In this document: one piece after another, positions 37,101 through 58,359 of the stretch
Position numbering within the stretch: the first letter of the stretch is position 1
How the letters are laid out: every line of letters starts with the position of its first letter
Assembly: GCA_044507735.1 (NCBI GenBank)
Contig: JBIQJB010000007.1
Span: 1 to 64,000 of the forward strand
Direction of reading: 5' to 3'
Length of the DNA stretch: 64,000 bases
Source: Nitrosopumilales archaeon
GTDB taxonomy: Archaea > Thermoproteota > Nitrososphaeria > Nitrososphaerales > Nitrososphaeraceae
Made by a program: the position numbers and the translations under genes
Notes under the pieces: generated by a model
The model's database searches: none
Seen by the model: the letters and a program-made list of their open reading frames with translations, nothing else
Told to the model about the DNA's origin: nothing

Positions 37101-37804
37101 CCGCGCGGTTCTCCACCACCGTGTTTGCTTCAGAATCCTTGATTGGAAATCCTGTATCCTTTGAGGTAGGGATACAATACATATCGGGAGATGAGGCAAA
37201 GTCAGAGACCCTGTCGCTTGGGGCAAACGTGATGGGCGAGATCAGGATAACTGTAACCGACCTGCAGGTGAGCTATATAGGAGGCACTCCAAACCTGGCA
37301 GGGAATCTGCTGAACCAGGGAAACACAATGGCGTTCTTTACGACCATAGCAATGGAAAAACCTGCCTCAAACAGCAGCAGCAACAGCCTCATGCCGCTGA
37401 CAGACGATCCGCAGTATCTGGGCGACCTGGAGGAAAACTCGCCCCTCCCATTCACGATCCCGCTTGCATCCGACGGCGGCAGAATCCCGGCAGGCCAGTA
37501 CCCTGTCTCGCTTCTGATCAAGTATAGCGACGAGCTGAGGGACGAATACGAGTTTGAAATAAACTCGGTTGTTCCAGTTGAGCCGCCCGCGCAAGAAGGG
37601 CCTGCCCAGAGCGGTGGGATGCCTGACGGCACGACCAACATGATAGTCATCGGCCTGATATTGGTGGCCGTGGCAGTCATTGCCGTCATAGTCATCACGA
37701 GGAGGCGGAGACAAAGGGTGTCAAGATTGGTGAGCAAGGACGAAGAAGATTATGAACGTCTGGACGAGTACCGCCGATCCGAGCGCGATTCAGCAGGCCT
37801 GTAA
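34103..37804 (+). CDS. COG1361 S-layer-family surface protein with an internal duplication and C-terminal TM anchor
   Basis: Signal peptide; duplicated FVD.[FY]W, PGxG.A.LAVVL.N, ILGDSRW.L and PNLAGNLLN.GNT; TM followed by RRRR. Confidence 0.88.
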   Translation: MIRRSYSAAAIACFSLLLAAAIQPSMPFASAQLASDAHQPEGSVRFAFVDSFWTDSVALGSVVASTSSENISVNPLPPAAKRETEPGQGEAILAVVLVNRGSADATSIRASLDFPSGFNAIVTPEDVDSDTALASYNGVVAAGRTFTLYFRVEITDDADVDKEYEGDLRIRYVMVGDPEDTRSTTIEVPFRLTGTAILSAHAVESDESRESDLGVVSVSPGSSSTLEIEIRNDGTAPATRVVASIAAGGQETPATGGNNSQVVPPRSVPLVIVGSPTFNIGRLEADDDEEIKPVVFAADAAAGTLTTLNIQITYNDAYGNQRVANQIVGIQVSPKSPQSGLNISPSVLDAPSRQPEVPLTLTTLSPSAAGNVTAPAGNGTAALPQTATASQPIKIQAGSIQDLKFAITNDETVGGSITDVTVTLTSGSNEVRILGDSRWNLQSLPEGSRQQLSTQVYASTAVIGSPVFFTVTMEYIRDGDELRTETFQLGAVVVGEIRISANDLAISYIGDTPNLAGNLLNTGNTPALFTSIELVAQEGQSLQPATSSQYLGDLPVNSPVAFNIPLALPENATGQTYPVLLRITYSDELRNNQEQIVNGTVSLGNLLAGDALGPGAANTGFVDAYWAQSASPAATASNTSEQAAGQGLPSEREVGPGEGPAFLAVVLSNTAFSDITGIIGYLRLPEGFTAATLDQGQTAIASLSGVVRAGQTYTLYFRVNVQEGAQIGVHNALLEINYFKVPEPQPGRYRVQTITVPFELAGKVVLDASPETSNLVPGETNEVKINIRNRGSADARSVIVTLDSIGGSIITGDSSNRQTSGNAQRNETGEASASAVSLGARTFNIGTIPAGGAAEITTTVFPSSTAGGTLQNLDVTISYNDANGDAKSTAVSLGFRVSPNPPDGGLSVTPSAAEGAQAGRIIFGTTITGSPAGSAGNASGGATSKAAIVAGRVDDLNFNITNNNNNPVTDVVVTLTPRSGSLEILGDSRWTLPSLEPRTTARFSTTVFASESLIGNPVSFEVGIQYISGDEAKSETLSLGANVMGEIRITVTDLQVSYIGGTPNLAGNLLNQGNTMAFFTTIAMEKPASNSSSNSLMPLTDDPQYLGDLEENSPLPFTIPLASDGGRIPAGQYPVSLLIKYSDELRDEYEFEINSVVPVEPPAQEGPAQSGGMPDGTTNMIVIGLILVAVAVIAVIVITRRRRQRVSRLVSKDEEDYERLDEYRRSERDSAGL

Positions 37805-37865
37805 AGACAGCTTTGTCGAACTCTTATTATTTGATAAGTGTACATTTTTTTGCAGCATTCTATTG

Positions 37866-39047
37866 TTGGATTACAGGCTCAAAGTTGCAGTCAGCATGCT
37901 GTTCAAAAAGAAAAGCAGCATGTTCGCAGCAGTCATCGCCGTTGCAATCGCGGTGCTTGTCATAGTGATAAACTATGTCACATTTGACGGGGTGGCAAAC
38001 GCAATCATACGCGATCTGGTCGACTACAGGTTTGGGCACATCCAGATATCAGACAGAAATGGCGACATCGAAAGGCCGGAAAGCGAGCTGATAGGATTCT
38101 TGGAAAGCACGGGGATGGTCAAGGGGGCGACCGTGAGGCTGAATGACGTTGCATCGATAAACAACACCAGAACCTCTGTCCCGGTCAGAGTCTACGGCGT
38201 CCCTATTGTGGGGGTTCTTCCGCAGGAGGAAGAGGACGCAACGCGTTTGGCAGACACCGTGGTGCAAGGGACGTTTCTCACATCCCGCGATTCAATAGTG
38301 CTTGGCGCCAGCGTTGCAGAAGACCTTGAGGCCAGAATCGGCGACCCGGTAAGGGTGAAGGTGACTGACGAATCCGGAAACGAGCAGACAAAGAGGTTCA
38401 CTGTAGTCGGGATATCAGAGACTGCCGGCGGGCTTGGTTTTGACACGTCTGCGATCGTTCACATCGAAGCTTTGCGCGACTTGAACGGCAGGGATGACAG
38501 CAGCAGCGAGCTGATAGTGAGGCTCTATGACCAGCGGGACTCTGACAATGTATCCCGGGCGTTTTCCACAAGATACGCAGGCGAGCACTTTAAAATACAG
38601 ACGATCGAGGAGTCCGCTGAGGGCATCCTCCAGGGGATACGCTCCGGAATCGCATTCATAAACCTGGTGGGATATTTCGGGATGCTGTCATCGGCCTTTG
38701 GCATCATTACGATAATGATGATGATTGTAACAAGCAAGATAAGGGAGATAGGAGTGATGCGGGCTTTAGGCTCGAGCAAGAGCGATGTCATGATAATCTT
38801 TCTGCTGCAGGGAACAATCATCGGGGCAATGGGCGCCGCGCTTGGGTTTCTGCTTGGGTCATCCTATGCCCTCTACGCACAGAACTCGGATCTTTCATTT
38901 GGGGAGAGCCTGTCGCTTGCAGTGCGCTACGACCCGGTGTTTGTGGCAAACACCGCGCTCACCGGCCTTGTAATGGGGGTTGCTGCTTCGATCTATCCGG
39001 CATGGCGCACCACAAAGCTAGAACCGGCGGAGGCGACTCGCTATTAG
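37866..39047 (+). CDS. ABC exporter permease (FtsX/MacB/LolC-E type)
   Basis: TTG start giving MDYR.. (paralog starts MDFR); REIGVMRALG and YPAWR..KLEP. Confidence 0.9.
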   Translation: MDYRLKVAVSMLFKKKSSMFAAVIAVAIAVLVIVINYVTFDGVANAIIRDLVDYRFGHIQISDRNGDIERPESELIGFLESTGMVKGATVRLNDVASINNTRTSVPVRVYGVPIVGVLPQEEEDATRLADTVVQGTFLTSRDSIVLGASVAEDLEARIGDPVRVKVTDESGNEQTKRFTVVGISETAGGLGFDTSAIVHIEALRDLNGRDDSSSELIVRLYDQRDSDNVSRAFSTRYAGEHFKIQTIEESAEGILQGIRSGIAFINLVGYFGMLSSAFGIITIMMMIVTSKIREIGVMRALGSSKSDVMIIFLLQGTIIGAMGAALGFLLGSSYALYAQNSDLSFGESLSLAVRYDPVFVANTALTGLVMGVAASIYPAWRTTKLEPAEATRY

Positions 39048-39063
39048 GGATAGGTCAAGGATT

Positions 39064-39738
39064 GTGGAAGCACACGGCCTGACCAAGATATACGGGACAG
39101 GCGATGTCTCCACGCTCGCGCTCAGAAACGTATCGTTTGACATACGCAGGGGCGAATTTGTCCTGATAGTGGGCCAGTCCGGCTCTGGCAAGTCAACGCT
39201 GCTGCACATAATCGGGCTACTTGACAAGCCCACTGCAGGTAGGATCGTAATTGATGGGATAGACACAACCCGTCTCTCCGACGCTGACAGGTCAATAGTG
39301 CGGCGGCGCAAGATTGGATTTATCTTTCAGGCATACAACCTCCTGTCCGACCTCACCGTGGTGGAAAACGTGATGCTGCCGCTAATGATGACAAACAGAG
39401 GCTCGTCTTCTACGATGCGGAGAGAGGCTGAAAGGTTGCTTGGGAAGGTGGGCCTTGCCCGGCAAGTAGACAAGCAGTCAAACCAGCTGTCAGGGGGACA
39501 GATGCAGCGGGTTGCGGTGGCAAGGGCGCTGGTCAGCAGGCCGGCGCTTGTCCTTGGCGACGAGCCGACTGGAAACCTGGATTCAAAGTCGTCGCAAGAT
39601 GTCATTACGCTGATGAAGGAGCTGAACAAAGAGCTGAACCAGACGTTTGTCATTGTGACCCACTCAAGGGAGTCTTTTGGCAGGGTAGACAGGACAATCG
39701 TACTGAGGGACGGGAGGATCGAAAAGATTGTGGAGTAG
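39064..39738 (+). CDS. ABC ATP-binding protein (LolD/MacB type)
   Basis: GQSGSGKST, LSGGQMQRVAVARAL and DEPTGNLD. Confidence 0.95.
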   Translation: MEAHGLTKIYGTGDVSTLALRNVSFDIRRGEFVLIVGQSGSGKSTLLHIIGLLDKPTAGRIVIDGIDTTRLSDADRSIVRRRKIGFIFQAYNLLSDLTVVENVMLPLMMTNRGSSSTMRREAERLLGKVGLARQVDKQSNQLSGGQMQRVAVARALVSRPALVLGDEPTGNLDSKSSQDVITLMKELNKELNQTFVIVTHSRESFGRVDRTIVLRDGRIEKIVE

Positions 39739-39788
39739 TATTGGGGTTCAGGGGCGCAGCTCAATTTTGTCATGGGAGGCTAAGCGAA

Positions 39789-40973
39789 ATGGACTTTAGG
39801 GTAATCCTGGCGACAAGGCTCCTGTTAAAGAGAAGGGGCAACTTCATTGCGTCCATAACCGCGCTGGTAATTGGCATCATGGTAATCCTCTTTAATTCTC
39901 TGATATTCAACGGGGTTGCCTTGGGGATACTCCGAGACCTTGGCGACTACAGGTTTGGCAACGTGCTGGTGACAAAGAACGAAGGTAACTTTCACAACGA
40001 AGCCACACAGATCATTAGGTACGCGCAGACCTTCCCGTATGTCGACGGGGCCGCGCCCCGGCTCCAATCGATAGCGTGGATGAATTCAACTGAAGGCAAT
40101 ACTAGGAATGAAGCTGACAAGGTGCCGGTTGTAGGGGTGGACCCGATGAGGGACCCGACGGCTTCGCGGCTCTTTGAGACCGTGACGGAGGGCTCGTTTG
40201 TGGATTCCAGGGGTGAAATCGTACTTGGAAGAAATGTAGCCGACGATCTAAAGGCCAAGGTCGGAACAAGGCTGGACCTCCGGATGGTCACGGCAGGCGG
40301 CGAGGACGCCACGAGGCGGCTCATAGTTGTCGGGATTTCAAGCTCACCTGGCGGCCTCGCCTTTGACGACTCTGCGATAATGACAATCGAAGATGTCAGG
40401 GAGATAACCGGAAGGCGGGGCGAGACTGACCAGATACTCATCAAGCTGGCGGACGCGTCGTTTCAAGAGGATCTGAAGGCCAGGCTGGGCGAGGCCTATC
40501 GCGAGGAGAACCTGAAGGTTCAGACACTTGAAGAGGCTGGGGAAGAGACCCTCTCCGGCATCCGGTCCGGGATCGCTTTCATAAACCTTGTAGGATACTT
40601 TGGGCTGCTCTCTGCCTCCTTTGCGATCGTAACGATAATGATGCTCATGGTGTCAAGCAAGACTCGCGACATCGGCATCATAAAGTCTCTTGGCGGCAAG
40701 AGCACAGACATCCTTTTGATATTTGTCTTGCAGGGGTTGATTATCGGTTCCATCGCAGCTGCAAGCGGATTCGTTGTGGGTTCGTTCGTAGGCATCTACT
40801 TTCAATCGGTTGAATTTTCATTTGGGCCGGGACTTGTCCTTGAAGTAGTCTATGACCCCCTGTTCACCCTGACGTCGTCTCTTTCTGCCATACCACTTGG
40901 AACGGCTGCAGCGGTCTACCCGGCATACCGGGCTTCCAAGCTGGAGCCAATCGGAGCCATCGGGCGTGCCTGA
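39789..40973 (+). CDS. Second ABC exporter permease (FtsX/MacB/LolC-E type)
   Basis: MDFR start; RDIGIIKSLG and YPAYRASKLEP; paralog of 37866..39047. Confidence 0.9.
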   Translation: MDFRVILATRLLLKRRGNFIASITALVIGIMVILFNSLIFNGVALGILRDLGDYRFGNVLVTKNEGNFHNEATQIIRYAQTFPYVDGAAPRLQSIAWMNSTEGNTRNEADKVPVVGVDPMRDPTASRLFETVTEGSFVDSRGEIVLGRNVADDLKAKVGTRLDLRMVTAGGEDATRRLIVVGISSSPGGLAFDDSAIMTIEDVREITGRRGETDQILIKLADASFQEDLKARLGEAYREENLKVQTLEEAGEETLSGIRSGIAFINLVGYFGLLSASFAIVTIMMLMVSSKTRDIGIIKSLGGKSTDILLIFVLQGLIIGSIAAASGFVVGSFVGIYFQSVEFSFGPGLVLEVVYDPLFTLTSSLSAIPLGTAAAVYPAYRASKLEPIGAIGRA

Positions 40974-48157: not shown

Positions 48158-48754
48158 ATGTTCACAGGCATAGTCGAAGGGACGGGCAAGGTTAAGTCCA
48201 TATCAAAGAGCAAAAAGGGCGCCGACACGGTGATGAGAGTCGGTCTTGGCAGGCTTGCACGCGGTCTCAAGCGGGGCGATAGCGTTTGCATAAACGGCGC
48301 ATGCCTGACAGTCACAAAGCTATCAAAAGGCGATGCAGAATTTGAGATGGTGGCAGAGACTATTAGACGTACAAACCTAGGCAATGTGAAGCCTGGAGAC
48401 AAGGTGAACATCGAGAGATCCATGAAAGTGGGTGACAGAATTGAGGGTCATTTTGTCTTGGGCCACGTTGATGGAACCGGCATAATTGAGGATGTGCAAA
48501 GCCTACCATCTGAGACCAAAGTGTGGATCAAGCTCGGCGAAGGGCTGGCAAGAACCCTGGTTCCAAAAGGTTCCATTGCAGTGGATGGCGTAAGCCTCAC
48601 TCTGGTTGACATCAAGGGAGATTTGGTCTCTGTATCTCTGATACCTCATACCCTTGGAGCTACGACCCTTGGACTGAGAAAAAAGGGTGATATCGTAAAC
48701 ATTGAGACAGATATTCTAGGCAAGTATGTAGCAAATAACCTGCCAATAAAATAG
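48158..48754 (+). CDS. ribE: Riboflavin synthase (bacterial-type alpha chain)
   Basis: MFTGIVE N-terminus, NGACLTV, GHFVLGHVDG, GSIAVDGVSLT and VNIETD. Confidence 0.95.
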   Translation: MFTGIVEGTGKVKSISKSKKGADTVMRVGLGRLARGLKRGDSVCINGACLTVTKLSKGDAEFEMVAETIRRTNLGNVKPGDKVNIERSMKVGDRIEGHFVLGHVDGTGIIEDVQSLPSETKVWIKLGEGLARTLVPKGSIAVDGVSLTLVDIKGDLVSVSLIPHTLGATTLGLRKKGDIVNIETDILGKYVANNLPIK

Positions 48755-49010
48755 GGCGCGAGGAGGACAGGCGCTTCCGCAGAAAACCAAGAACAAGAAT
48801 TTGAATCAAAAAGTTCATCAGCGAAAGGGCAAGATTTTGCTGTAAGGCAATTCGATAAAAATACAACGGGTCATTGAAGTATTCTTGTGCTTCGCTATCG
48901 GAAATGTCACATGCACGTTGCCGTCTGAGCAGGACCCCAGAAATTGATGAAATACGGTTGTAGATCAATTGTAGAACTGCGTATATCCTACAAGTGGGAA
49001 GATCAGATAG

Positions 49011-49235
49011 ATGACTGGGATTCTGGCATATTGCGAAGGGTGCAAACACGCATTGTATGAATCTGACATTTCTGTCAATACCTATGATTTGGCAGTGGAT
49101 GATGGAACGATCTTGACCTGCCCCAATTGCGATCGGGTAAATGAAGTGTACTCCCACACAGTCACAAAAGAACGACACAGTCCTGCAATGCGGAGCGACG
49201 ATACAAGACACCACACAAGGCAGCACTACCAATAA
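49011..49235 (+). CDS. Small zinc-finger protein
   Basis: YCEGCKH...TCPNCDR. Confidence 0.55.
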   Translation: MTGILAYCEGCKHALYESDISVNTYDLAVDDGTILTCPNCDRVNEVYSHTVTKERHSPAMRSDDTRHHTRQHYQ

Positions 49236-49239
49236 AGTG

Positions 49240-49625
49240 ACAACACTGTTGCAGCATTTGAAGAGGCCAAATCAAACACACATGGAATAGGACCTGAGCA
49301 GATGTCCCCTAATTCGCTCAGACATTGCAATAGCGGAGTTAAGGTATTTGCAAACGCAAAGCGCGTTGATTACTGCGGGCTAGGCAAAAAAACAGGACAA
49401 CCACGTCAACCCCTTAGAGTGCTTGAACACAACGCTGCGCGAAAGGCTAAAGGTGTAGCACGGATAGAAAACAGCAAAGACACTGCTAGCGGAAGGCAAC
49501 TGCATATACAGTACAATTTCGTAAAGCCATATGTGGTTCTAGACGGTCAGACACCAGCTCAAGCGGCGGGATTGAAAGTGAGAGGGGTGGAAAGAATCGT
49601 TGACGCTGGCTGTCAAGGACGATGC
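49240..49625 (+). pseudogene. C-terminal remnant of an IS6-like DDE transposase
   Basis: Across frames: AFEEAK..., LNTTLRERLKV*HG*K.., IQYNFVKPY..LDGQTPAQAAGL; in-frame stops and frameshifts. Confidence 0.8.
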
Positions 49626-49850
49626 GTAAAGAATTTCATGAGGATTACACTTGTTGCACCCGCAGCTATTGCGACAATGCTAAAGGGGAAAAGAATCCAA
49701 ACTCCTAAACATACAGTCCATGAAAGGTAGAATAGAACTAACCCAAATGCAAAAAAGGAGATAGCAAGTACCATAGTCTCCAATTGCGTCTTTAATTATC
49801 AAGAACTGTTAAATTCCTTTATCAATTCCATAAAAATTAGTCACATCATT

Positions 49851-51020
49851 TTGTCCAGCCAGGAGCAAATAGAAGATACGCCCAGTGATCCTCTGGTAGC
49901 AGCAGAAGTTAATGATGACAAGTTTTGGTTTTCACATTGGACGCACGAATATGAGGTCAAAGAGACTGGACCGATGAAGAAGGAATTCTTCTTGCTGAAA
50001 AATAAACCGCAGATAAAGATGGATTGGGACAATTGTACAATAAATATTGCGACAGCACTTGGCGATGGCAAGATAAGGCTTGTTGTACGAAGCAAGACTG
50101 ATAGAAATAGCGACTACATGGGTGACAAGCCTGTACAGATCCGGTTTATGCTAGGCATTGACGTTTCTCCAGATTCAATTTCAGAAGTACGCGCAGAACC
50201 ATACAAAATAGCTCGGGATTCCAAACGAAAAGATCTGAATTCCCTGAAAGAGGAAGAAGAGCGCGAGCGATGGGTGTTTAATTTGGGAAAAGAGGCAGAG
50301 GTGTGGCAGTGGGCCAACAATAATCAAGACATGAGATCAAGCAAGGTATTTGCGCTTCGAGAAAGGATAAGAAAGTTTCTAGACCTGCCAGAGGAACCCA
50401 GTGGGGGCAAGATATTCCGAGTAAAGGTAGAACAGCTTGACAAGGTAATACCAGTCATATATCAGCCAGCAGTAGATTCACTCGATAACTTTTTGCGCGA
50501 CGTGCACTGCCATATAAAGAATGAACAAGACAGCGATAATGTTGTTGATGTTGAAGTAACTCTAGTGTTCAATAATGAATATCTGCGCAGATTTTGGATA
50601 CTTGATCACAGCTACAAATGGTTCAGAAAAATAAAGTATGGAAGAATGTTGGATATCGAGACTTTTCACATTCATTTCGTCAAAGACAAGCTGAACGAAA
50701 ATTATTTCTTGTTTGAAGGGATCTATAGTGGATCCCACGACTTGCAGCAGGACGCTACTCACTTTGATGTGGGGAAACGTGTAGAACATGAAATAGCATA
50801 CTATTTGGCGGATCAATTCCATCCGATAGTGTTTGTCAATACATCCAACCATGCAATGTCGGAGCACGATAATAACCATGGGCTATGGAAATGGGAGTAT
50901 ATTCCATGGATAAAAAAGGCTCCCATAAAGCTTGGCAACAAGAGCCGAAAGCAGATAGATGCAGAGTATCTGACAATATTTGATAGGTTTATCAGACTGT
51001 TAAGCAAGCTTGGAAATTGA
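49851..51020 (+). CDS. Hypothetical protein with a conserved-looking His/Asp-rich C-terminal domain
   Basis: 389-aa intact ORF; YGR..DIETF, HPIVFVNTSNHAM and WKWEY. Confidence 0.8.
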   Translation: MSSQEQIEDTPSDPLVAAEVNDDKFWFSHWTHEYEVKETGPMKKEFFLLKNKPQIKMDWDNCTINIATALGDGKIRLVVRSKTDRNSDYMGDKPVQIRFMLGIDVSPDSISEVRAEPYKIARDSKRKDLNSLKEEEERERWVFNLGKEAEVWQWANNNQDMRSSKVFALRERIRKFLDLPEEPSGGKIFRVKVEQLDKVIPVIYQPAVDSLDNFLRDVHCHIKNEQDSDNVVDVEVTLVFNNEYLRRFWILDHSYKWFRKIKYGRMLDIETFHIHFVKDKLNENYFLFEGIYSGSHDLQQDATHFDVGKRVEHEIAYYLADQFHPIVFVNTSNHAMSEHDNNHGLWKWEYIPWIKKAPIKLGNKSRKQIDAEYLTIFDRFIRLLSKLGN

Positions 51021-51084
51021 TCTTTCATTGGCATCGCACCATTATTCTCGTTTTTGGAAAAAAGATATAGCATGCGTGTAATAA

Positions 51085-51272
51085 GCGAGGATATATCATT
51101 TCGGCATAGCATGATTCAAGCCTGGAGTTTGAGTTAGTAGGGTCTTTTTTACAAAATAGAGCTCTAATGGAGCACATATTGCCGCTCTAGCGGCTATATT
51201 GATATTATATCTCGCCTGCAATAACATTGCCCCTAAATTGTCAAGAGACCTACTGTAACAAGAATAGCCAAA
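51085..51272 (+). repeat. ~190-bp imperfect direct repeat, copy 1
   Basis: GCGAGGATATATCATT...TGGAGTTTGA...GCCTGCAATAA...TGTCAAGAGACCT.CTGTAACAAGAATAGCCAAA shared with 52847-53035. Confidence 0.9.
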
Positions 51273-51422
51273 TGAGATAGAAATATTGTTGGGTTTCTAC
51301 GTCAAGATTGGCAAGAGACCATCCCAATACAGCACGGTCTCCATTTCATCAACAATTTCCAATTCGCTGGCAAAAGTGCCAGAATGTCTTGCCAGCAGGA
51401 TAGAAATTTGAATATGAAAAGG

Positions 51423-51443
51423 TGTGAAGTGCGGGATTTGAAC
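51423..51443 (-). repeat. tRNA 3'-end-like fragment (att-like), copy 1
   Basis: Minus strand GTTCAAATCCCGCACTTCACA = T-loop, 3' T-stem and acceptor strand. Confidence 0.6.
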
Positions 51444-51466
51444 AAACCCCGCATGTCGCCTCTCTA

Positions 51467-52549
51467 TTATTGGGCCACTTCCTGCGTTTCTTCACGCGGT
51501 CCTTCGGTAGGTATCTGTATGAAGGGAGTGCCTCCTTCACCTACGACCAGGGGAAGCCTTCCATCCCACTGCTGAGTCTTGAGCCACTCCAGATAATGCG
51601 GGTTGTTCCTTAGCTGCTCGTCGATAATCCTTATGGCTTCGGCTTCTCCTTGCGCTTCAAGGATGTTTGCCTGCCTCAGGCCCTCTGCGCGAGCAATGTT
51701 TGCCTGCTGCTCTCCGATGGCTCTTGCTTCTGCCTGCTGGGCTTCTATTTCGATCCTGCGAAGCTCGTTGCTGGCCTGAAGCGCCCTCTGCTCTGCTTCA
51801 ACCTTGGCCTCGACAGCCCTTGTGAACTGGTCAGAGAACTTGAATTCTGTGATTGAAATGGTTTCTACGATTACATTGTATGTTGCAAGCCTCTGCTTTA
51901 TCTGCTGCTCAATCTCTGTTTTCACCGTCTCTCTTTTTGTAATCAGTTCCTCCGCGTTGAACCTGGCTGTTACCTGCTTTACCGATTCCTGGATTGCAGG
52001 GCTTATGACTCTGGTTCCATATTCATATCCCAGCTGCTGGTACAGTATCTGAGCATTTTCTGGGCTCACATGATAGTTCAGTGCAACTTCTGTCCTGACG
52101 TCCTGCAGGTCCTTGGATGCCGAAGCTGCGCTCTCGACTGTCTTGAGCGTCCTAACTTCTACTTGTATGACGTTATCTCTAAACGGCGTCACAAGATGAA
52201 GTCCTTCAGGTAACGAACGTGTTGTATCCACAGCTCCAAACTGGAGCAAGACTCCTCTGTGACCCGCTTCGACTATCTTGATGCTTGACGCAAGCACTAT
52301 TGACAGCACTATCACTCCAATGACAGCAGGTATCGCTATCTTCGTTATCTTCTTTGGATAGCCGTTGCTTATGCCCCTGTAAGAACGCGGGTCTTCTAAC
52401 GGCTCTCCTTCCGGGGTGGTGTTTCTGCCCGGATATATTTTTCTTCCATAGGATCGCGCTAAAGATATCCGCCTGTAGGCGATGAATCCAATGATTCCAA
52501 GTATTATGACAGTGATTGCAATCGAAATTATAGTGCCTGCTTCAACCAT
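51467..52549 (-). CDS. Prohibitin/SPFH (band 7) family protein
   Basis: IVEAGHRGV..FG, EGLH..PF, ASKDLQ, FNAEELITKR, EAKVEAEQ and WDGRLP. Confidence 0.93.
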   Translation of the reverse strand: MVEAGTIISIAITVIILGIIGFIAYRRISLARSYGRKIYPGRNTTPEGEPLEDPRSYRGISNGYPKKITKIAIPAVIGVIVLSIVLASSIKIVEAGHRGVLLQFGAVDTTRSLPEGLHLVTPFRDNVIQVEVRTLKTVESAASASKDLQDVRTEVALNYHVSPENAQILYQQLGYEYGTRVISPAIQESVKQVTARFNAEELITKRETVKTEIEQQIKQRLATYNVIVETISITEFKFSDQFTRAVEAKVEAEQRALQASNELRRIEIEAQQAEARAIGEQQANIARAEGLRQANILEAQGEAEAIRIIDEQLRNNPHYLEWLKTQQWDGRLPLVVGEGGTPFIQIPTEGPREETQEVAQ

Positions 52550-52710
52550 TGTTCAGCTCCTCCGAGCAACAGTTTCTGTCTAGAAATCTATTAGACAAAA
52601 TGTTTCTTACTCTAACCATTAGTAAAATGATCTACAGTCATCATTATTAAGTTCTTGCAGTGAGAGCATTCTGATTACTACTACTACAACATTTATTTTG
52701 TTAAAGTGAA

Positions 52711-52732
52711 TGCGAAGTGCAGGATTTGAACC
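52711..52732 (-). repeat. tRNA 3'-end-like fragment (att-like), copy 2
   Basis: Minus strand GGTTCAAATCCTGCACTTCGCA. Confidence 0.62.
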
Positions 52733-52846
52733 TCGCATTATAGTCGTTGTCATCCTTCTCCGAAATATCGTCATCGTTCAATAGCCTATTTTCAAAAACC
52801 GTTCGAGCAAGAAGGAAATGTAATAATGTCAAATGCTTACGGATTT

Positions 52847-53035
52847 GCGAGGATATATCATTGCGGCACGGCATGACTCATACCTTGGAGTTTGAATTAG
52901 CAAGGTCTTCTTTTTACAGAATATAGATCTAGTAGAGTATATTGCCGCAATCGATTTTGACGACAGCATCATTGCCTGCAATAATGCTGCTCCCAAAAAA
53001 ATGTCAAGAGACCTCCTGTAACAAGAATAGCCAAA
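52847..53035 (+). repeat. ~190-bp imperfect direct repeat, copy 2 (leader of the DUF4157 gene)
   Basis: Aligns with 51085-51272; ends 40 nt before ATG 53075. Confidence 0.9.
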
Positions 53036-53074
53036 ACTTATCTAGAAGAGCCAAGTAAGGGAACAACAATATCG

Positions 53075-54673
53075 ATGTCGTTCATTTTGCATCGCACAGA
53101 GAAGAATAAGGCGGCCAACAGCAAATCATCAGATGCTGCCAAAACCCATATCCAAAATAGTTTGGTCAATAATGGTCCTCAGGAATCTGTTGTTAATCTA
53201 CAACGATTCAATCGCAGCCAAGAATCACTAATAACAAGACTCCGCTCAAATGAAAGCTTGTTTGATTTCTCCACAATTCGTATTCAACCAAAGCTAAAAG
53301 TGAGCCAGCCAGGAGATGCCTATGAACAAGAGGCTGACAGAATTGCTGATGCGGTAATCGCAACTCCCGTTACCAATCCTGCTCCCGTCACAGTCACACA
53401 TACTCAGCCCAAGTTGCATGCGAGGCGCAGTTGTAGTACTTGCAAGGGCGCCAGAAAAGATAAGGATGAAAAATTTCAGACATCAAATCTTGAGATAGGA
53501 AGAAAAGCTACCAACAACAACTCCTCTAGCCTCAAGACATCTGATCAAATAACCAATGAGATCAACACTGCTATCAAGTCTGACAGTGGTAAAGCGCTTG
53601 ATCCTTCAACAAGACATTTCATGGAAACTCAATTTGGTCATGATTTTTCAACCGTTCGGATACATACTGATCAGAAAGCAGTTCAATCAGCCCAACTCCT
53701 TAACGCACATGCCTATACTGTAGGAACTGATATCGTATTTGACGATGCTCAATATCAACCTGATACGACTGAAGGAAAAAGACTGCTTGCTCATGAACTG
53801 ACGCATGTAGTGCAGCAAAGCTCGGCACCGCTGCAAGAATCGCAGCCAGGAGCATCATACGGATCTGCTGCCGCAGCCTCGCTTTATGTACAGCGCGACC
53901 TTGCTCGCCCGCCCACGGGGGCACCTGATGCACTGGTTGAACTGACACCGGAGCAGATTGAAGAAGCAATAGCGTTTAATGAGTCTCAATTTACAGACCC
54001 ATACTCTATTCTTCGGATCCGCGACGTGCTGGGAATCGAACCAATAGGAATAGTAGATGAAGCTCTAATTAGAGCTGTAGTTCAGTGGCAGTCAGAGTTT
54101 CATCTACAACAAGACGGTAAAATCGGCTTGGCAACATTTCGGTCAATAATAAGGGAGCTGCAGGCAGAAGGTCAGCGCGATGATGTTATCGTACTCATAA
54201 TCGACTTTTTCCACATGCCCACCCGCGGACTGGTTTCCATCCGTTTTGACTCTACAGTTGCGGCTAATGCTTCTACAAGCGGACCAATTCCAGGCAATTC
54301 CACAGTACGTGTTGGACCTGCCGCCTTTGCACAGGGGTTCGCCGGCCTGGTACATACCATTAGACACGAACTAGAACACGTGCAGCAGCGCCGAGCTGGA
54401 ATGTTGAACCAAAACTTGCGCGAGTTCCTTGCAGAGTCTGTTGAGATACTTAGCGTTGGAATGCCTCGGGAAAATGTGGCCGGCTTTATGGATGATGCAG
54501 GTCGCGCTCTGCATTTCTGGAATCTGCTTTCAGTTGCAGAACAGAGGGCAAACTGGGCGCAATTTGAGCGTGTAAGAGATGAGGTTCGTCGCAGATTCAA
54601 TGGCGCACCTGCAGCAGAGCAGGCAACGCATCAAGCTCTAATGGATTCATACAATGCAGTAGTTCAACCATGA
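53075..54673 (+). CDS. DUF4157 (eCIS core domain) effector with a peptidoglycan-binding-like domain and C-terminal HExxH metallopeptidase
   Basis: IQPKLKVSQPGDAYEQEAD; G..LD..TR.FME.QFGHDFSTVRIHTD..AHAYTVG.DIVF..LLAHELTHVVQQ; AVVQWQ..L.QDGKIGLAT; HTIRHELEHVQQ. Confidence 0.88.
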   Translation: MSFILHRTEKNKAANSKSSDAAKTHIQNSLVNNGPQESVVNLQRFNRSQESLITRLRSNESLFDFSTIRIQPKLKVSQPGDAYEQEADRIADAVIATPVTNPAPVTVTHTQPKLHARRSCSTCKGARKDKDEKFQTSNLEIGRKATNNNSSSLKTSDQITNEINTAIKSDSGKALDPSTRHFMETQFGHDFSTVRIHTDQKAVQSAQLLNAHAYTVGTDIVFDDAQYQPDTTEGKRLLAHELTHVVQQSSAPLQESQPGASYGSAAAASLYVQRDLARPPTGAPDALVELTPEQIEEAIAFNESQFTDPYSILRIRDVLGIEPIGIVDEALIRAVVQWQSEFHLQQDGKIGLATFRSIIRELQAEGQRDDVIVLIIDFFHMPTRGLVSIRFDSTVAANASTSGPIPGNSTVRVGPAAFAQGFAGLVHTIRHELEHVQQRRAGMLNQNLREFLAESVEILSVGMPRENVAGFMDDAGRALHFWNLLSVAEQRANWAQFERVRDEVRRRFNGAPAAEQATHQALMDSYNAVVQP

Positions 54674-54723
54674 TGATGATAATGGGCATTATTATTCGCT
54701 AGAATGGTGGGAACAAACAAATC

Positions 54724-55173
54724 ATGACATCGGGTCCTCTAAGACTGGAAATAAGCGTACAAAAACAAGTTATTCACTTTGGAGCACCTTGCCAAGTCCT
54801 AGTCAAACTTTCAAATGAAGGGCTGAAATCCCAAATGGTCAATAAACGCCTGGCTATAGGCTATAGAGACAACATTTCTCGCGAAATATTTGCAGATCTA
54901 ATAAATCTCGATACGGGCGAGCCTGCCAGAATAGATGCAGTTGATTACAACAGAAATTTTTCCCCCGCTTCTGATTATGTTTACTTGCAACCGGGTGAAA
55001 CTATATCGACATTATTTGACCTTTTCGAGTGGTATCCTCCAGTATATGATGGGACTTACAGATTAGTTGTATACTATCAAGCAGACGAACCGATGGCCAC
55101 AGCGGCTCCACCAGATGTAGTTTCAGGAGTAATTGAGAGCAATCAAATTGTCTTGACCATCACTAAGCAGTAA
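54724..55173 (+). CDS. Ig-like protein resembling metalloprotease propeptide/inhibitor domains; candidate immunity protein
   Basis: LRLEISV..VLVKLSNEG..DYVYLQPGETISTLFDL..Y..GTYRL..IESN.IVLTI; immediately downstream of the effector. Confidence 0.7.
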   Translation: MTSGPLRLEISVQKQVIHFGAPCQVLVKLSNEGLKSQMVNKRLAIGYRDNISREIFADLINLDTGEPARIDAVDYNRNFSPASDYVYLQPGETISTLFDLFEWYPPVYDGTYRLVVYYQADEPMATAAPPDVVSGVIESNQIVLTITKQ

Positions 55174-55371
55174 GAAAACTTCTTGAACATCTATGGTTCA
55201 CAGAACAATGCGGCAATTGCGAAAGTGACACGATGTATTCCTCCTCAGAAATGTACACACATAGCTGATCACGCTTTTGTAGTTCTCGATCGATATGGCA
55301 GAGATATTTGCATCAGACCGCATCAAAAGTGACAACACTTTTCTAGTCCATCGAATTATGATATCATCGCT

Positions 55372-56898
55372 GTGGCATTGCACGCATTGGCAAAAAGTGT
55401 GAATAAGGAAAAAATGGGCAATGCGTATTGGTCAAAAGAACCAATGTATCCCAGCTTGTCTCGGTCTGCCAATCCTACGAGACATTCTCAGAATTCTACC
55501 CATTATTATTACCAAAAATCATCGTCATCTATCAGTGACGGGGAAAAGGCCATTCATAGCAGTACATCTTCATCTTCATCATCATTTGATTTTTCAAAAA
55601 TTGGAATCCAACCAAAGTTAAGAATCAGCCAGTCAGATGATGTCTATGAAAAAGAAGCCGATGAAATTGCTGGCCAAATAGTAGGAAGTGGCGCAGACTC
55701 TGCTTACTATCCTAGTGTAGCCGCGGTTGGAGCAAGAAACCTTCAGCAATCACCATCAAGTGACATGGATGATGGAAATCTACATGAGGATCTCTCTGAT
55801 CATAACGCTAATAGGGTAAAGAGCGTACTCAACTCAGGAGGACAACCACTTGATTCATCGACGCGCTTGTTGATGGAATCGCGATTTGGCTACGACTTTG
55901 GTCAAATAAGGATACATACGGGAAGTGACGCCTCGGCTTCTGCAGAGTCGGTAGGAGCCTTGGCGTATACTGCGGGACAGGATATTGTTTTTCGTGAAGG
56001 AATGTACTCGCCACTGACAGACGCAGGTCAAAGGTTGATTGCACATGAACTGGTGCACGCCATACAGCAGGAAAAAGCCAGCACAAAGGCCGTGACGACG
56101 ATGACGGCAGCAGGTAATAATAGTCTTCTGCTGCAGCGCCAAGAAGCAAAAGAAGAAAGCCAAGGTAAGAAAAAAGAGGATGATAATAATACAGGCGAAG
56201 TCATAGCAGAAGGATTAAAGACTGTGGCAGAACAGGCGGTGGATAACAATCCCAAAGTCAAAAAAGAGATAATAGAACCGTTGGAAAAGGCTGCGAAGAA
56301 AAAGGTGGAGAGCATGTCGACAGGAGAAAAGGCAGCGGTTGTGAGTTTTGGTGTCGCAACAGTTGGTCTTGCAGGCGGTGCGCTATTATCTGATCCAAAG
56401 GGGCGCGAGCTTTTAGAGGGGATAAATCTGGGCGCTCCACTTGCACTCATTCCATACATGCCCTTGACAGGTTTTAGCTATAAACTGCCAAGCGGTGATA
56501 CGGGAGAAAAAAGTCAGTTTAGGTTTGAAACGACTTTTTCCGGTAATGACTATCTAAAGTTACTTACCGAGCGCAAGGATTTTCCCAAAATGTCACTGGG
56601 AGTCAAGATGCAGTGGGGATATGACCCCAATACAGAACAACTAAGAGTGCTTGGAGCTCAGGCTCAACTTGGTCTTATGCCTGGAGTGAGCATAGCTGGC
56701 GGCACTTATCCTAACATACTTTCGATGCCTCAGACTTTTATAACTCCAGAAGGGCAGATGGTAACGAGTAAAAAGCGGATCCCAGATGTGGGCGGAGAGT
56801 CCATTCCCGATACGCGTGTAATGCTGAGCATAGACTTGCTCAAACTGGACAAGCGGATAATAGGCAAGAGACTTTACAATATTTTGCACTCCTTTTAG
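55372..56898 (+). CDS. Second DUF4157 (eCIS core domain) protein with an unrelated C-terminal payload
   Basis: FDFSKIGIQPKLRISQSDDVYEKEAD; GQPLD..MESRFGYDFGQIRIHT..ALAYTAGQDIVF..LIAHELVHAIQQ; the start may be ATG 55414. Confidence 0.88.
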   Translation: MALHALAKSVNKEKMGNAYWSKEPMYPSLSRSANPTRHSQNSTHYYYQKSSSSISDGEKAIHSSTSSSSSSFDFSKIGIQPKLRISQSDDVYEKEADEIAGQIVGSGADSAYYPSVAAVGARNLQQSPSSDMDDGNLHEDLSDHNANRVKSVLNSGGQPLDSSTRLLMESRFGYDFGQIRIHTGSDASASAESVGALAYTAGQDIVFREGMYSPLTDAGQRLIAHELVHAIQQEKASTKAVTTMTAAGNNSLLLQRQEAKEESQGKKKEDDNNTGEVIAEGLKTVAEQAVDNNPKVKKEIIEPLEKAAKKKVESMSTGEKAAVVSFGVATVGLAGGALLSDPKGRELLEGINLGAPLALIPYMPLTGFSYKLPSGDTGEKSQFRFETTFSGNDYLKLLTERKDFPKMSLGVKMQWGYDPNTEQLRVLGAQAQLGLMPGVSIAGGTYPNILSMPQTFITPEGQMVTSKKRIPDVGGESIPDTRVMLSIDLLKLDKRIIGKRLYNILHSF

Positions 56899-57206
56899 GA
56901 GAGAAAAACTATTGATTGCAAATGCCCCTAAATTGAGCTAGATAATCCTCAAGGCTAGTGAACAGGTTGAATTATGTGAAATATGCGATGATGTATTAAT
57001 TACTACAAGTGTAAGTGTCTAATCTCATTGCAAGACATTCTATATGAATGGGAAGACATCCCAGTGCAACATTTATCACGAATCCTTTTTGAGTCAAGCG
57101 TAGCCCAAGGATCATATTGATGTGGAGCATCGAATCGCAAATTCAAAAATAAAAGATGCGACAATGATCCTTACTATGTTGCTTAGACTACAACCTTGCA
57201 AATGAT

Positions 57207-57413
57207 GTGATCAATGCCAACCTGAGCCTTGACACCGTTTCTGGATCGTGTGATGCTGCTTCATTCCTTGACCACTTCTCGTTCACTCCTGTCAAAAAGG
57301 ACTTGCCGACTGGCGCAGCAATCAGCCCGGGCTCGGTGACGATCTATGTCAATGTGTACGACCTAGTAGGCGACATAGTGAAGTCAAAAGAGTTCAGAGA
57401 CCCAGACGTTTGA
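57207..57413 (+). pseudogene. Gene fragment near the right island end
   Basis: 68-aa ORF that looks like a truncated C-terminus; identity unknown. Confidence 0.3.
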
Positions 57414-57678
57414 GATAGAGAAGGATTTTACAGAGCAACTGTTGTTCGAGTCTGATCGACGGCGATACGTACAGGATGAGGGTATTCACCATCAGGGTGT
57501 GGCAGCACTCCGATAAAGTTCGGAGATAAAGATTACATGACGATTGTAGTCTAGCGGTCCTCTTTTCACAGTATTTGGCAGTACCTGCCGAGGCTTTGAT
57601 AGAAGGATTCAACCAATAAATTGGTATTAACCAACATTTTAGTAATCTTTTAATAACAAAAACCTACAACAACTGTCA

Positions 57679-58359
57679 TTGTCTCTTGCTGAAGCAATGG
57701 CAGCACTCAAGGCTGGGAAATTCGTTCTGGTCCACGACGACAAGGGACGCGAGAACGAGATTGATATGGTAGTAGCCGCGGAGCACGTCAAGCCGCACCA
57801 TGTTGCTACAATGAGAGAGGCTGCTGGTGGCTTGCTGTGCCTTGCAATTGCAAACGAGATCACCACAAAGCTTGGGCTGGTCTACATGCATGACATGATA
57901 GACAGGATGGGCAAAGTCAACCCGATATTTTCAAAGTTAACAGAGGGAAAAGCAGCATATGGCGACAAGCCTTCATTTTCGATCTCTATCAACCATCGCT
58001 CGACCTTTACCGGCATTACCGATAACGACAGGGCTCTAACGATATCCAAGATGGCAGAAGTCTGCAGAAATATTGATTTCGGAGGCGTTGAAGACTTTGC
58101 GAATAGCTTTCGCGCCCCTGGCCACGTTCCAATCCTGATAGCGTCAAGACGCCTGTTGCATGATCGGATGGGCCACACCGAGCTGTGCATCTATCTTGCA
58201 AAGCTCGCCGGAATCGTACCTGCAGTGGCCATGTGCGAAATGATGGATTCAGCTACACATGGGGCGCTTTCAATTGAAGCGGCACAGGAATACGCAGACA
58301 AATTCGGCATCCCGCTGGTTGATGCAAGCGAGCTCAAAGCTCACGCCAGGGTGGCATAA
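57679..58359 (+). CDS. ribB: 3,4-dihydroxy-2-butanone-4-phosphate synthase
   Basis: DDKGRENEID, TGITDNDRALT, FRAPGHV, RMGHTE and CEMM. Confidence 0.95.
   Translation: MSLAEAMAALKAGKFVLVHDDKGRENEIDMVVAAEHVKPHHVATMREAAGGLLCLAIANEITTKLGLVYMHDMIDRMGKVNPIFSKLTEGKAAYGDKPSFSISINHRSTFTGITDNDRALTISKMAEVCRNIDFGGVEDFANSFRAPGHVPILIASRRLLHDRMGHTELCIYLAKLAGIVPAVAMCEMMDSATHGALSIEAAQEYADKFGIPLVDASELKAHARVA

Follow-up and report, generated by a model that had tools for sequence, protein, structure and literature searches.

Here we analyze a gene pair in a 64,000-nucleotide (nt) stretch of a Nitrosopumilales archaeon genome (the whole stretch, which lies on contig C33, is called the window below). The first gene, open reading frame (ORF) A, encodes a DUF4157 protein that carries a PG_binding_1-type domain and a second HExxH metallopeptidase domain, and the second gene, ORF B, encodes a conserved partner that is predicted to plug the active site of this peptidase. 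On balance, we favor the view that ORF A is a cargo effector of a contractile injection system (CIS) and ORF B its cognate inhibitor, with the bacterial envelope as the most likely target. The two genes and their parts are as follows:

53075..54673, + strand: ORF A, 532 amino acids (aa); DUF4157 cargo-type protein with a peptidase payload
53075..53596, + strand: N-terminal region of ORF A, aa 1-174; polar, no signal peptide; candidate loading sequence
53597..53827, + strand: DUF4157/eCIS_core domain (PF13699), aa 175-251; HELTH at aa 240-244, 53792-53806
53882..53965, + strand: payload start, aa 270-297; conserved [VI]QRDLARPP...LT..Q...AI.FN
53966..54175, + strand: PG_binding_1-type three-helix domain, aa 298-367
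54188..54484, + strand: small zincin core, aa 372-470; three strands, the HELEH helix and the E450/E457 helix
54485..54670, + strand: C-terminal helical bundle, aa 471-532; generic three-helix structure matches only
54724..55173, + strand: ORF B, 149 aa; starts 50 nt past the ORF A stop
54934-54957, + strand: predicted plug loop of ORF B, aa 71-78, with D74, Y75 and R77

The ORF A payload and its partner

A preliminary description of this DNA, made from its letters and their translations, had read ORF A as a DUF4157 protein with a peptidoglycan-binding-like domain and a second metallopeptidase, and all the motifs it listed were found again where it had placed them. Profiles, invariant residues and fold comparisons support this three-part architecture. 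The DUF4157 domain contains HELTH and is matched by the Pfam profile eCIS_core (eCIS, extracellular CIS) with an E value of 3.4e-35 and 120.5 bits against a cut-off of 22. It is preceded by a polar region with the motif STIRIQPKLKVSQPGDAYEQEADRIADAV (aa 66-97, 53270-53365), which recurs in the two other DUF4157 proteins of the genome (consensus [FY]DFS.I.IQP[KR]L..S...D..E.EA), and all three proteins share the same order of polar stretch, motif, spacer and DUF4157 domain. In AlgoCIS cargo, which is built from an N-terminal domain, DUF4157 and a C-terminal domain, the N-terminal domain is required for loading, according to the available text of that work (bioRxiv 10.64898/2026.05.27.728243). 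By analogy, the N-terminal region of ORF A is a candidate loading sequence. Neither ORF A nor ORF B contains an N-terminal hydrophobic stretch, in agreement with the earlier statement that ORF B has no signal peptide.

The payload (aa 270-532) comprises the PG_binding_1-type domain, a small HExxH zincin and a helical bundle, and the VQR at aa 272-274 (53888-53896) lies inside its conserved start. A search with residues 275-532 returned 69 homologues, 28 of which were used for alignments, and invariance was counted in 28/28 and 29/29 sequences. The AlphaFold model of the payload has a predicted local distance difference test (pLDDT) score of 96.9 and a predicted template modeling (pTM) score of 0.91, and places the PG-binding-type domain and the peptidase in a single rigid body.

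The PG-binding-type domain contains AVVQWQSEFHLQQDGKIGLAT (aa 334-354, 54074-54136). Its earlier assignment to PG_binding_1 (PF01471) is supported by fold matches and by the annotation of PF01471 in most payload homologues, while its own score is borderline (20.8 bits on the protein against a cut-off of 23, and 23.7 bits in a six-frame scan). Many bacterial homologues have two PG_binding_1 units or an additional PG_binding_3 domain (PF09374). The model of aa 298-367 superimposes on 1lbu with a modest Z score of 6.8 (root mean square deviation (r.m.s.d.) is 1.8, comparing 63 aligned residues with 22% identity), followed by 8da2 (Z 6.6), 6tci (Z 6.5) and 5nm7 (Z 6.4); the r.m.s.d. of the PG-binding superpositions is 1.8-2.0. 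When the payload was compared with the Protein Data Bank (PDB) by sequence profiles, the PG-binding region alone was matched, by phiKZ gp144 (E 0.03).

The second HExxH motif, HELEH at aa 431-435 (54365-54379), is not a chance occurrence. Residues H431, E432 and H435, together with E450 (54422-54424) and E457 (54443-54445), are invariant in all aligned homologues, as are two residues, A399 and T401, of a conserved strand with the pattern NA.TSG. Comparison of the zincin core with solved folds returned SPRTN (Z 6.8-6.9) and abylysin (Z 5.7), which is a weak and commonly seen range. The top Pfam match of the catalytic fragment is eCIS_core/DUF4157 itself (E 0.0088, 16.6 bits, below the cut-off), and hhalign gives 85-88% probability for this likeness, which spans just 35-36 columns around a strand and the HExxH helix. 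The zincin core thus may be distantly related to DUF4157. No aspzincin match to the ORF A peptidase was obtained in any test run, no NCBIfam family was found for ORF A or ORF B, and neither the catalytic domain nor ORF B is covered by a Pfam, NCBIfam or PADLOC family over its curated cut-off.

ORF B is a conserved partner of this payload. A word-indexed search returned three homologues, a figure that reflects the sensitivity limit of that method, because an exhaustive search (115 representatives at E ≤ 0.001) and a scan of loci found more. We located 21 payload loci in species genomes, all of them bacterial (Desulfobacteraceae, many Bacteroidota, Anaerolineales, Actinomycetota, Myxococcota, Acidobacteriota and others), and in 18 of them an ORF B homologue follows directly on the same strand (phmmer E 8e-44 to 4e-5). 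The three loci without a partner (L032-L034) contain the most distant payload homologues; among the 21, one locus (L023) ends at a contig edge and three more (L026, L027 and L031) are either fragments or situated in long ORFs that overlap. A hydrophobic leader is present in 10 of the 16 locus partners displayed and in 25 sequences of a 59-row family alignment, 13 of these lipobox-like. That alignment consists of ORF B and 58 of the 115 homologues, picked for near-full length.

The ORF B model (pLDDT 95.2) is a β-sandwich. Its top fold match is to residues 23-155 of AsaP1 (PDB ID 2x3a; Z 11.3, r.m.s.d. 3.0 comparing 118 residues with 19% identity), followed by the intracellular proteinase inhibitor of Bacillus subtilis (3isy; Z 9.3, 113/117 residues aligned); generic sandwiches reach Z scores of at most 9.0. 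We take AsaP1 residues 23-155 to be the inhibitory propeptide of that zinc endopeptidase.

Models of the ORF A payload in complex with ORF B have an interaction prediction score from aligned errors (ipSAE) of 0.82 (0.80, 0.83 and 0.82 in separate runs), compared with 0.21 for the best of three controls; contacts agree by at least 96%, and the partner pLDDT is at least 91. This complex modeling, which the preliminary description had put forward as a check, places ORF B on the HExxH site. The modeled interface is formed on the ORF A side by the edge strand A396-I405, H431, E432, H435, E450 and their neighbors, and on the ORF B side by A44-I51 and D71-N78, with D74 touching H435, E432 and E450. 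Conservation within the partner family is concentrated in these interface loops (R77 in 58/59, Y75 in 41/59 and D74 in 40/59 sequences). Taken together, the conserved pairing, the fold and the complex model suggest that ORF B is an active-site inhibitor of the ORF A peptidase, acting as an immunity protein or as a propeptide in trans. The cognate immunity gene proposed earlier has in this way gained a conserved partnership and an inhibitor-like fold, with inhibition itself a prediction from these.

Host, delivery genes and genomic setting

The genome is 2.33 Mb in size and 97% complete, with an estimated contamination of 0.48%. It encodes two full-length archaeal amoA copies (E 3e-120 and 2e-115), and the riboflavin genes in the window are of archaeal type, GTP cyclohydrolase III among them:

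C17:115287-115835: amoA, full-length archaeal copy
C9:29699-30247: amoA, second full-length archaeal copy in the same genome

We found no penicillin-binding protein (PBP) transpeptidase and no shape, elongation, division and sporulation (SEDS) genes in this genome, using searches that were positive in 10/14 control genomes. The host is thus an ammonia-oxidizing archaeon, as had been proposed, without detectable peptidoglycan synthases.

The preliminary description had noted that the window contains no eCIS structural genes and had called for a search of the genome. We find sheath, tube, gp25 and Baseplate_J genes only on contig C53 and the cap gene only on contig C42, in two pieces that form one complete locus:

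C42:60291-69305 and C53:1-15898 (loci L011 and L009): CIS locus, ~24.9 kb, complete

At its right end, C42 shares exactly 55 nt with the left end of C53, an overlap seen at no other contig end. The assembly break falls within a tandem peptide repeat, which is part of a 292-aa ORF that runs across the join; we therefore treat the two pieces as one locus. On C53 the CIS genes all lie on the minus strand and extend over ~15.9 kb down to the contig start. They encode PAAR, gp25, two Baseplate_J proteins (905 and 934 aa), an 867-aa protein, a DUF6519 protein (1137 aa), the sheath (559 aa), a gp19-type tube protein (E 1.7e-41) and a T4_baseplate/DUF6760 protein. The end of C42 contributes a CIS_tube-like gene, a Phage_base_V spike, a AAA+WHD (winged-helix) ATPase (701 aa), a Pvc16_N cap and the third DUF4157 protein of the genome, a 597-aa cargo with OmpA and reprolysin-type domains (L011:10978-12771), which is followed by a 108-aa ORF. 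A 230-aa ORF after this cargo gene was rejected as a gene: it runs antisense to the ATPase gene, with which it overlaps, and the homologues found for it are likewise frames antisense to ATPase genes. The CIS genes fit an eCIS-type set rather than a prophage (Pvc16_N cap, AAA+WHD ATPase, DUF4157), with no search made for capsid or terminase genes.

A comparable cargo is found in another genus of the archaeal family. Locus L036 (G044:C73, 994-2796) encodes a CIS-linked protein with DUF4157, OmpA-like (E 0.001) and Aspzincin_M35 (E 7e-9) domains, and its M35 peptidase belongs to the same family as AsaP1, the top fold match of ORF B.

ORFs A and B lie, together with a second DUF4157 gene, on an island between two riboflavin genes:

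48755..57678: island, 8.9 kb, between a riboflavin synthase-like gene (48158-48754) and ribB (57679-58359)
51467-52549, minus strand: SPFH/Band 7 gene
55372..56898, + strand: ORF C, 508 aa; second DUF4157 protein, 198 nt past ORF B

The distance between the riboflavin synthase-like gene and ribB is 8,925 nt here and 66-660 nt in 4/4 same-genus genomes in which both genes were found, which places ORFs A-C on an inserted island. Its GC content is 0.443 (over 49302-57600), compared with 0.486 genome-wide. Besides ORFs A, B and C, the island carries the SPFH gene and ORFs of 142 aa (49302-49730) and 389 aa (49851-51020). No family was found for the former and no Pfam family for the latter, which has a sub-threshold NCBIfam match to the Leptospira adhesin Lsa23 (E 1e-20, 73.9 bits against 270); the island ORFs had no PADLOC match. 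An imperfect direct repeat of ~190 nt and ~80% identity (51085-51272 and 52847-53035) flanks the SPFH/Band 7 gene, and because its second copy ends 40 nt ahead of the ORF A start, this copy may carry the ORF A promoter.

ORF C, which the preliminary description did not mention, matches the DUF4157 Pfam profile with E 9.8e-29. Its C-terminal domain differs from the ORF A payload and contains one hydrophobic segment near aa 320-340; the C-terminal 260 residues have 153 homologues, almost all of them DUF4157 fusions. No Pfam family was matched by this region, nothing was found for ORF C in NCBIfam, a protein atlas returned only its own kind (score 0.80, under the trusted level), and there is no partner-sized ORF between ORF C and ribB. 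Elsewhere in the window, positions 34103-40973 encode a 1233-aa NEW3/CARDB-type protein followed by a MacB-type ABC set (FtsX/MacB_PCD, ABC_tran, FtsX/MacB_PCD), with a higher GC content of 0.54-0.57.

At the bacterial payload loci, the flanking sequence retrieved around the module includes an eCIS ATPase homologue in 10/21 cases, and further eCIS genes are a sheath gene at L018, a cap gene at L034 and a Baseplate_J gene at L014. Among 121 genomes of the archaeal family, DUF4157 was found in 7, the cap gene in 4 and the payload in one, the genome described here. In G101, a complete genome of the same genus, cap and DUF4157 genes share a contig at a distance of 20-25 kb. A profile of the ORF B family is positive in this genome and has no match in five relatives, in which there was no positive control. 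Homologues of ORF A with 93 and 84% sequence identity (P0002 and P0003) are full length and keep all catalytic residues. ORF B has homologues at 68% identity, one of them on a 19,568-nt contig equal in size to that of the 84% ORF A homologue. The stretch is present in metagenome runs of 8 studies, which suggests that the lineage carrying it is widespread. In a quick, arbitrarily rooted maximum-likelihood tree of the payload, three archaeal-type rows form one clade (approximate likelihood ratio test 97), and each of the 18 named rows in the surrounding radiation is bacterial. Transfer from bacteria is the simplest reading of the module's origin.

PG_binding_1 domains as such are more common in the archaeal family. 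We find them in 19/121 genomes, where they are strong and often in tandem (G070, G078, G118, G060 and others); G070 has four in a single 518-aa frame. Their presence across the family is relevant to the question of whether interaction with bacterial walls is common among these archaea.

Target and alternative explanations

We propose that ORF A would be a cargo of the CIS encoded on C42/C53, with its polar N-terminal region and DUF4157 domain forming the delivery part. The C-terminal 260 residues would be the payload, in which a PG_binding_1-type domain would serve targeting and form a rigid unit with a small HExxH zinc peptidase. ORF B would place its conserved D74-Y75-x-R77 loop beside the edge strand that binds the substrate (aa 396-405), position D74 above the HExxH/E450 site and silence the peptidase in propeptide fashion, either in the cytoplasm of the producer or in a sibling-hit cell. 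The two-gene module, and probably the CIS too, would have come from bacteria by horizontal transfer, the module onto the riboflavin-gene island. The target would be the bacterial envelope, that is, peptidoglycan stem peptides or wall-associated proteins. We consider this target the most likely because the producer appears to have no peptidoglycan of its own, and the leaders on 25/59 partners fit a periplasmic site of action. The sister cargoes, OmpA plus reprolysin-type in this genome and OmpA-like plus Aspzincin_M35 in the other genus, follow the same plan of a wall anchor and a zinc peptidase.

The target is the weak link of this proposal. The earlier notion of an archaeal anti-bacterial weapon with an immunity protein has been strengthened by the host, the domain architecture, the cognate partner and the delivery genes, but three results cut against a simple anti-peptidoglycan reading. 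The points that weigh against our interpretation are as follows. A producer without peptidoglycan synthases keeps an intact, leaderless and presumably cytoplasmic inhibitor, which would be needless for a purely wall-directed enzyme; 24/59 members of the partner family are likewise leaderless (leader <12 aa), including Desulfobacteraceae and Anaerolineales locus copies. The occurrence of PG_binding_1 in 19/121 genomes of a wall-less family suggests that the ligand of this domain may not be peptidoglycan here. The catalytic domain matches no known wall-peptidase family, a Foldseek comparison of the payload with the PDB gave 0 matches at E ≤ 0.001, and the likeness to DUF4157 is short. ORF A lies on a different contig (C33) from the CIS, and the relatives G014, whose genome is complete, and G016 have DUF4157 genes and no detectable tube or cap. 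The complex was scored on self-made alignments, so that the calibration of the ipSAE mark, reached by 58/80 solved complexes and 2/110 mismatched pairs, holds only roughly. P0002 and P0003 are called archaeal from their 93 and 84% identity to ORF A alone. Finally, the loading, activity and toxicity of ORF A, and its expression, are presumed, and no RNA dataset was listed as containing 53075-55173. A substrate that occurs both inside and outside the membrane, for instance a wall-precursor stem peptide, would reconcile the leaderless and the leader-bearing partners, but this is speculation.

The strongest alternative retains the cargo/inhibitor pair and takes the peptidase for a general protein-cleaving toxin, which would act in the cytoplasm of any cell that is hit (other archaea, bacteria or small eukaryotes), with ORF B as classical immunity against self and siblings. 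Pfam PG_binding_1 also covers the prodomains of matrix metalloproteinases (MMP), and by this account the PG_binding_1-type domain would have a structural or regulatory role as in those prodomains, and would not anchor the protein to a wall; ProMMP-9 appears as a weak Foldseek row for the payload. The leaderless inhibitor, here and in 24/59 family members, fits action in the cytoplasm; the rigid union of the PG-binding-type domain with the peptidase (pTM 0.91) and the frequency of PG_binding_1 in the wall-less archaeal family are also in its favor, and haloarchaeal DUF4157 toxins with downstream immunity partners kill another archaeon, according to the available text (PMC11566945). However, the export or lipoprotein-type leaders on 25/59 partners suggest that in many bacteria the site of action is periplasmic, PG_binding_1 is doubled or accompanied by PG_binding_3 (PF09374) in many bacterial homologues, and the sister cargoes have OmpA-type domains. 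In addition, the predicted inhibitor interface excludes the PG-binding-type domain, which for this reason is no prodomain plug in the model. We regard a general toxin as unlikely.

An improbable explanation is that the island and its toxin-inhibitor module are passengers of horizontal transfer, selfish in the way of an addiction module or simply drifting, and are not used by the CIS of the archaeon. The island does interrupt a conserved operon, its GC content departs from that of the genome (0.443 versus 0.486), and the payload is confined to 1/121 family genomes. Moreover, G014 has DUF4157 frames of only 315, 197 and 102 aa and no CIS, which shows that decay of such genes occurs in this group. 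Yet the three DUF4157-related ORFs of the island show no damage, the N-terminal layout of ORF A equals that of the in-locus cargo of the same genome, the homologues of ORF A (93 and 84%) and ORF B (68%) are full length with intact catalytic residues, and the stretch recurs in the metagenome runs of 8 studies.

We consider it very improbable that the CIS acts inside or on its producer, as reported for Streptomyces CISs in differentiation and cell death, with ORF A/B as a regulated, self-directed pair. CISs with intracellular roles exist, according to the available text (PMC11126660), and the genes do not reveal the mode of this one: a cap, an ATPase, PAAR and two large Baseplate_J proteins are shared by CISs of several modes. 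Against this account, the producer offers no evident substrate for PG-binding-type and OmpA domains, and the export leaders on many bacterial partners fit defense against an incoming toxin.

Relation to known systems

DUF4157 is a marker of eCIS toxins in bacteria, and archaeal CISs are known in several phyla by bioinformatics (PMC11566945). The closest parallel to ORFs A and B comes from the same study, the available text of which describes a T6SS-like (type VI secretion system-like) CIS in Halogeometricum borinquense: DUF4157 proteins are secreted in a sheath-dependent manner, two of them being encoded off-cluster, and toxic DUF4157 proteins, neutralized by a downstream gene, mediate contact killing of another archaeon. 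These pairs share with ORFs A and B the archaeal producer, the N-terminal DUF4157 domain, the small downstream partner and, in some cases, a location away from the CIS cluster. The pair described here differs in that it comes from another phylum, in an ammonia oxidizer, and has another payload with a wall-binding-type domain and functions that are predicted. AlgoCIS Cgo1 and Cgo2 also resemble ORF A in having a disordered N terminus, DUF4157 and a variable C-terminal effector, with N termini that are alike within the system; AlgoCIS is bacterial, loading was measured there and is deduced by analogy here, and the available part of that source describes no inhibitor partner.

Among bacterial eCIS toxins, EAT10 is more toxic in the periplasm (Geller 2021, PMC8213781) and 68 predicted toxins have a peptidoglycan-binding domain (Danov 2024, PMC11297309), so far as the accessible portions of these papers go. 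The ORF A family resembles these peptidoglycan-related toxins in its link to eCIS and its predicted wall action, but has a conserved partner, whereas most eCIS toxins are without a recognizable immunity gene in the sources available to us. Zhang et al. 2012 (PMC3482391) describe C-terminal 'PVC-metallopeptidase' domains in polymorphic toxins, and a Tox-OmpA domain with the same N-terminal domain; in the part of their listing available, the archaea are euryarchaeota only. ORF A shares with these toxins a second, DUF4157-like HExxH domain in the C-terminal toxin position, and differs in the weakness of its DUF4157 likeness, extra conserved glutamates, the helical bundle and a dedicated inhibitor.

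The Streptomyces albus zinc D-Ala-D-Ala peptidase (1lbu) and the endolysins 5nm7 and phiKZ gp144 likewise join PG_binding_1 to a wall-active enzyme. The catalytic domains of 1lbu and of PG_binding_1 endolysins have other folds, and the catalytic domain of ORF A, in contrast, is a HExxH zincin without such a match. For ORF B, the β-sandwich is the same as in the zymogen of the M35 aspzincin AsaP1 (2x3a) and in 3isy. Unlike the AsaP1 propeptide, ORF B is a separate downstream gene rather than an N-terminal propeptide, and sequence identity is ≤19%.

Among CIS cargoes marked by DUF4157, a known class, ORFs A and B represent a new family of effectors with inhibitors, found here in an unusual host. 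The combination of PG_binding_1, a small zincin and a β-sandwich partner defines this family across many bacterial phyla, beside eCIS genes. Immunity genes are hard to find for eCIS toxins, according to the available text (PMC8213781), and a conserved partner with a predicted plug would thus be useful for eCIS biology and engineering. Our literature search, which did not extend to supplements, returned no description of a CIS or its cargo in ammonia-oxidizing archaea, apart from one table entry (PMC9230969) for a Ca. Nitrososphaera evergladensis sheath protein. A 2025 study reports that archaeal peptidoglycan hydrolases kill bacteria and, in its available text, leaves a link to CISs open. The locus offers a concrete, cloneable candidate in ecologically dominant ammonia oxidizers, and turns this explicitly open question into a cloning experiment.

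Tentatively, an ammonia-oxidizing archaeon may inject wall-anchored zinc peptidases into bacteria and keep them latent by a separate, propeptide-like plug. If true, no earlier case would be known of archaea turning a contractile weapon across domains on bacteria, and the plan of wall anchor plus zincin, which recurs in a second genus, could influence how archaeal nitrifiers compete with bacterial ones in soil.

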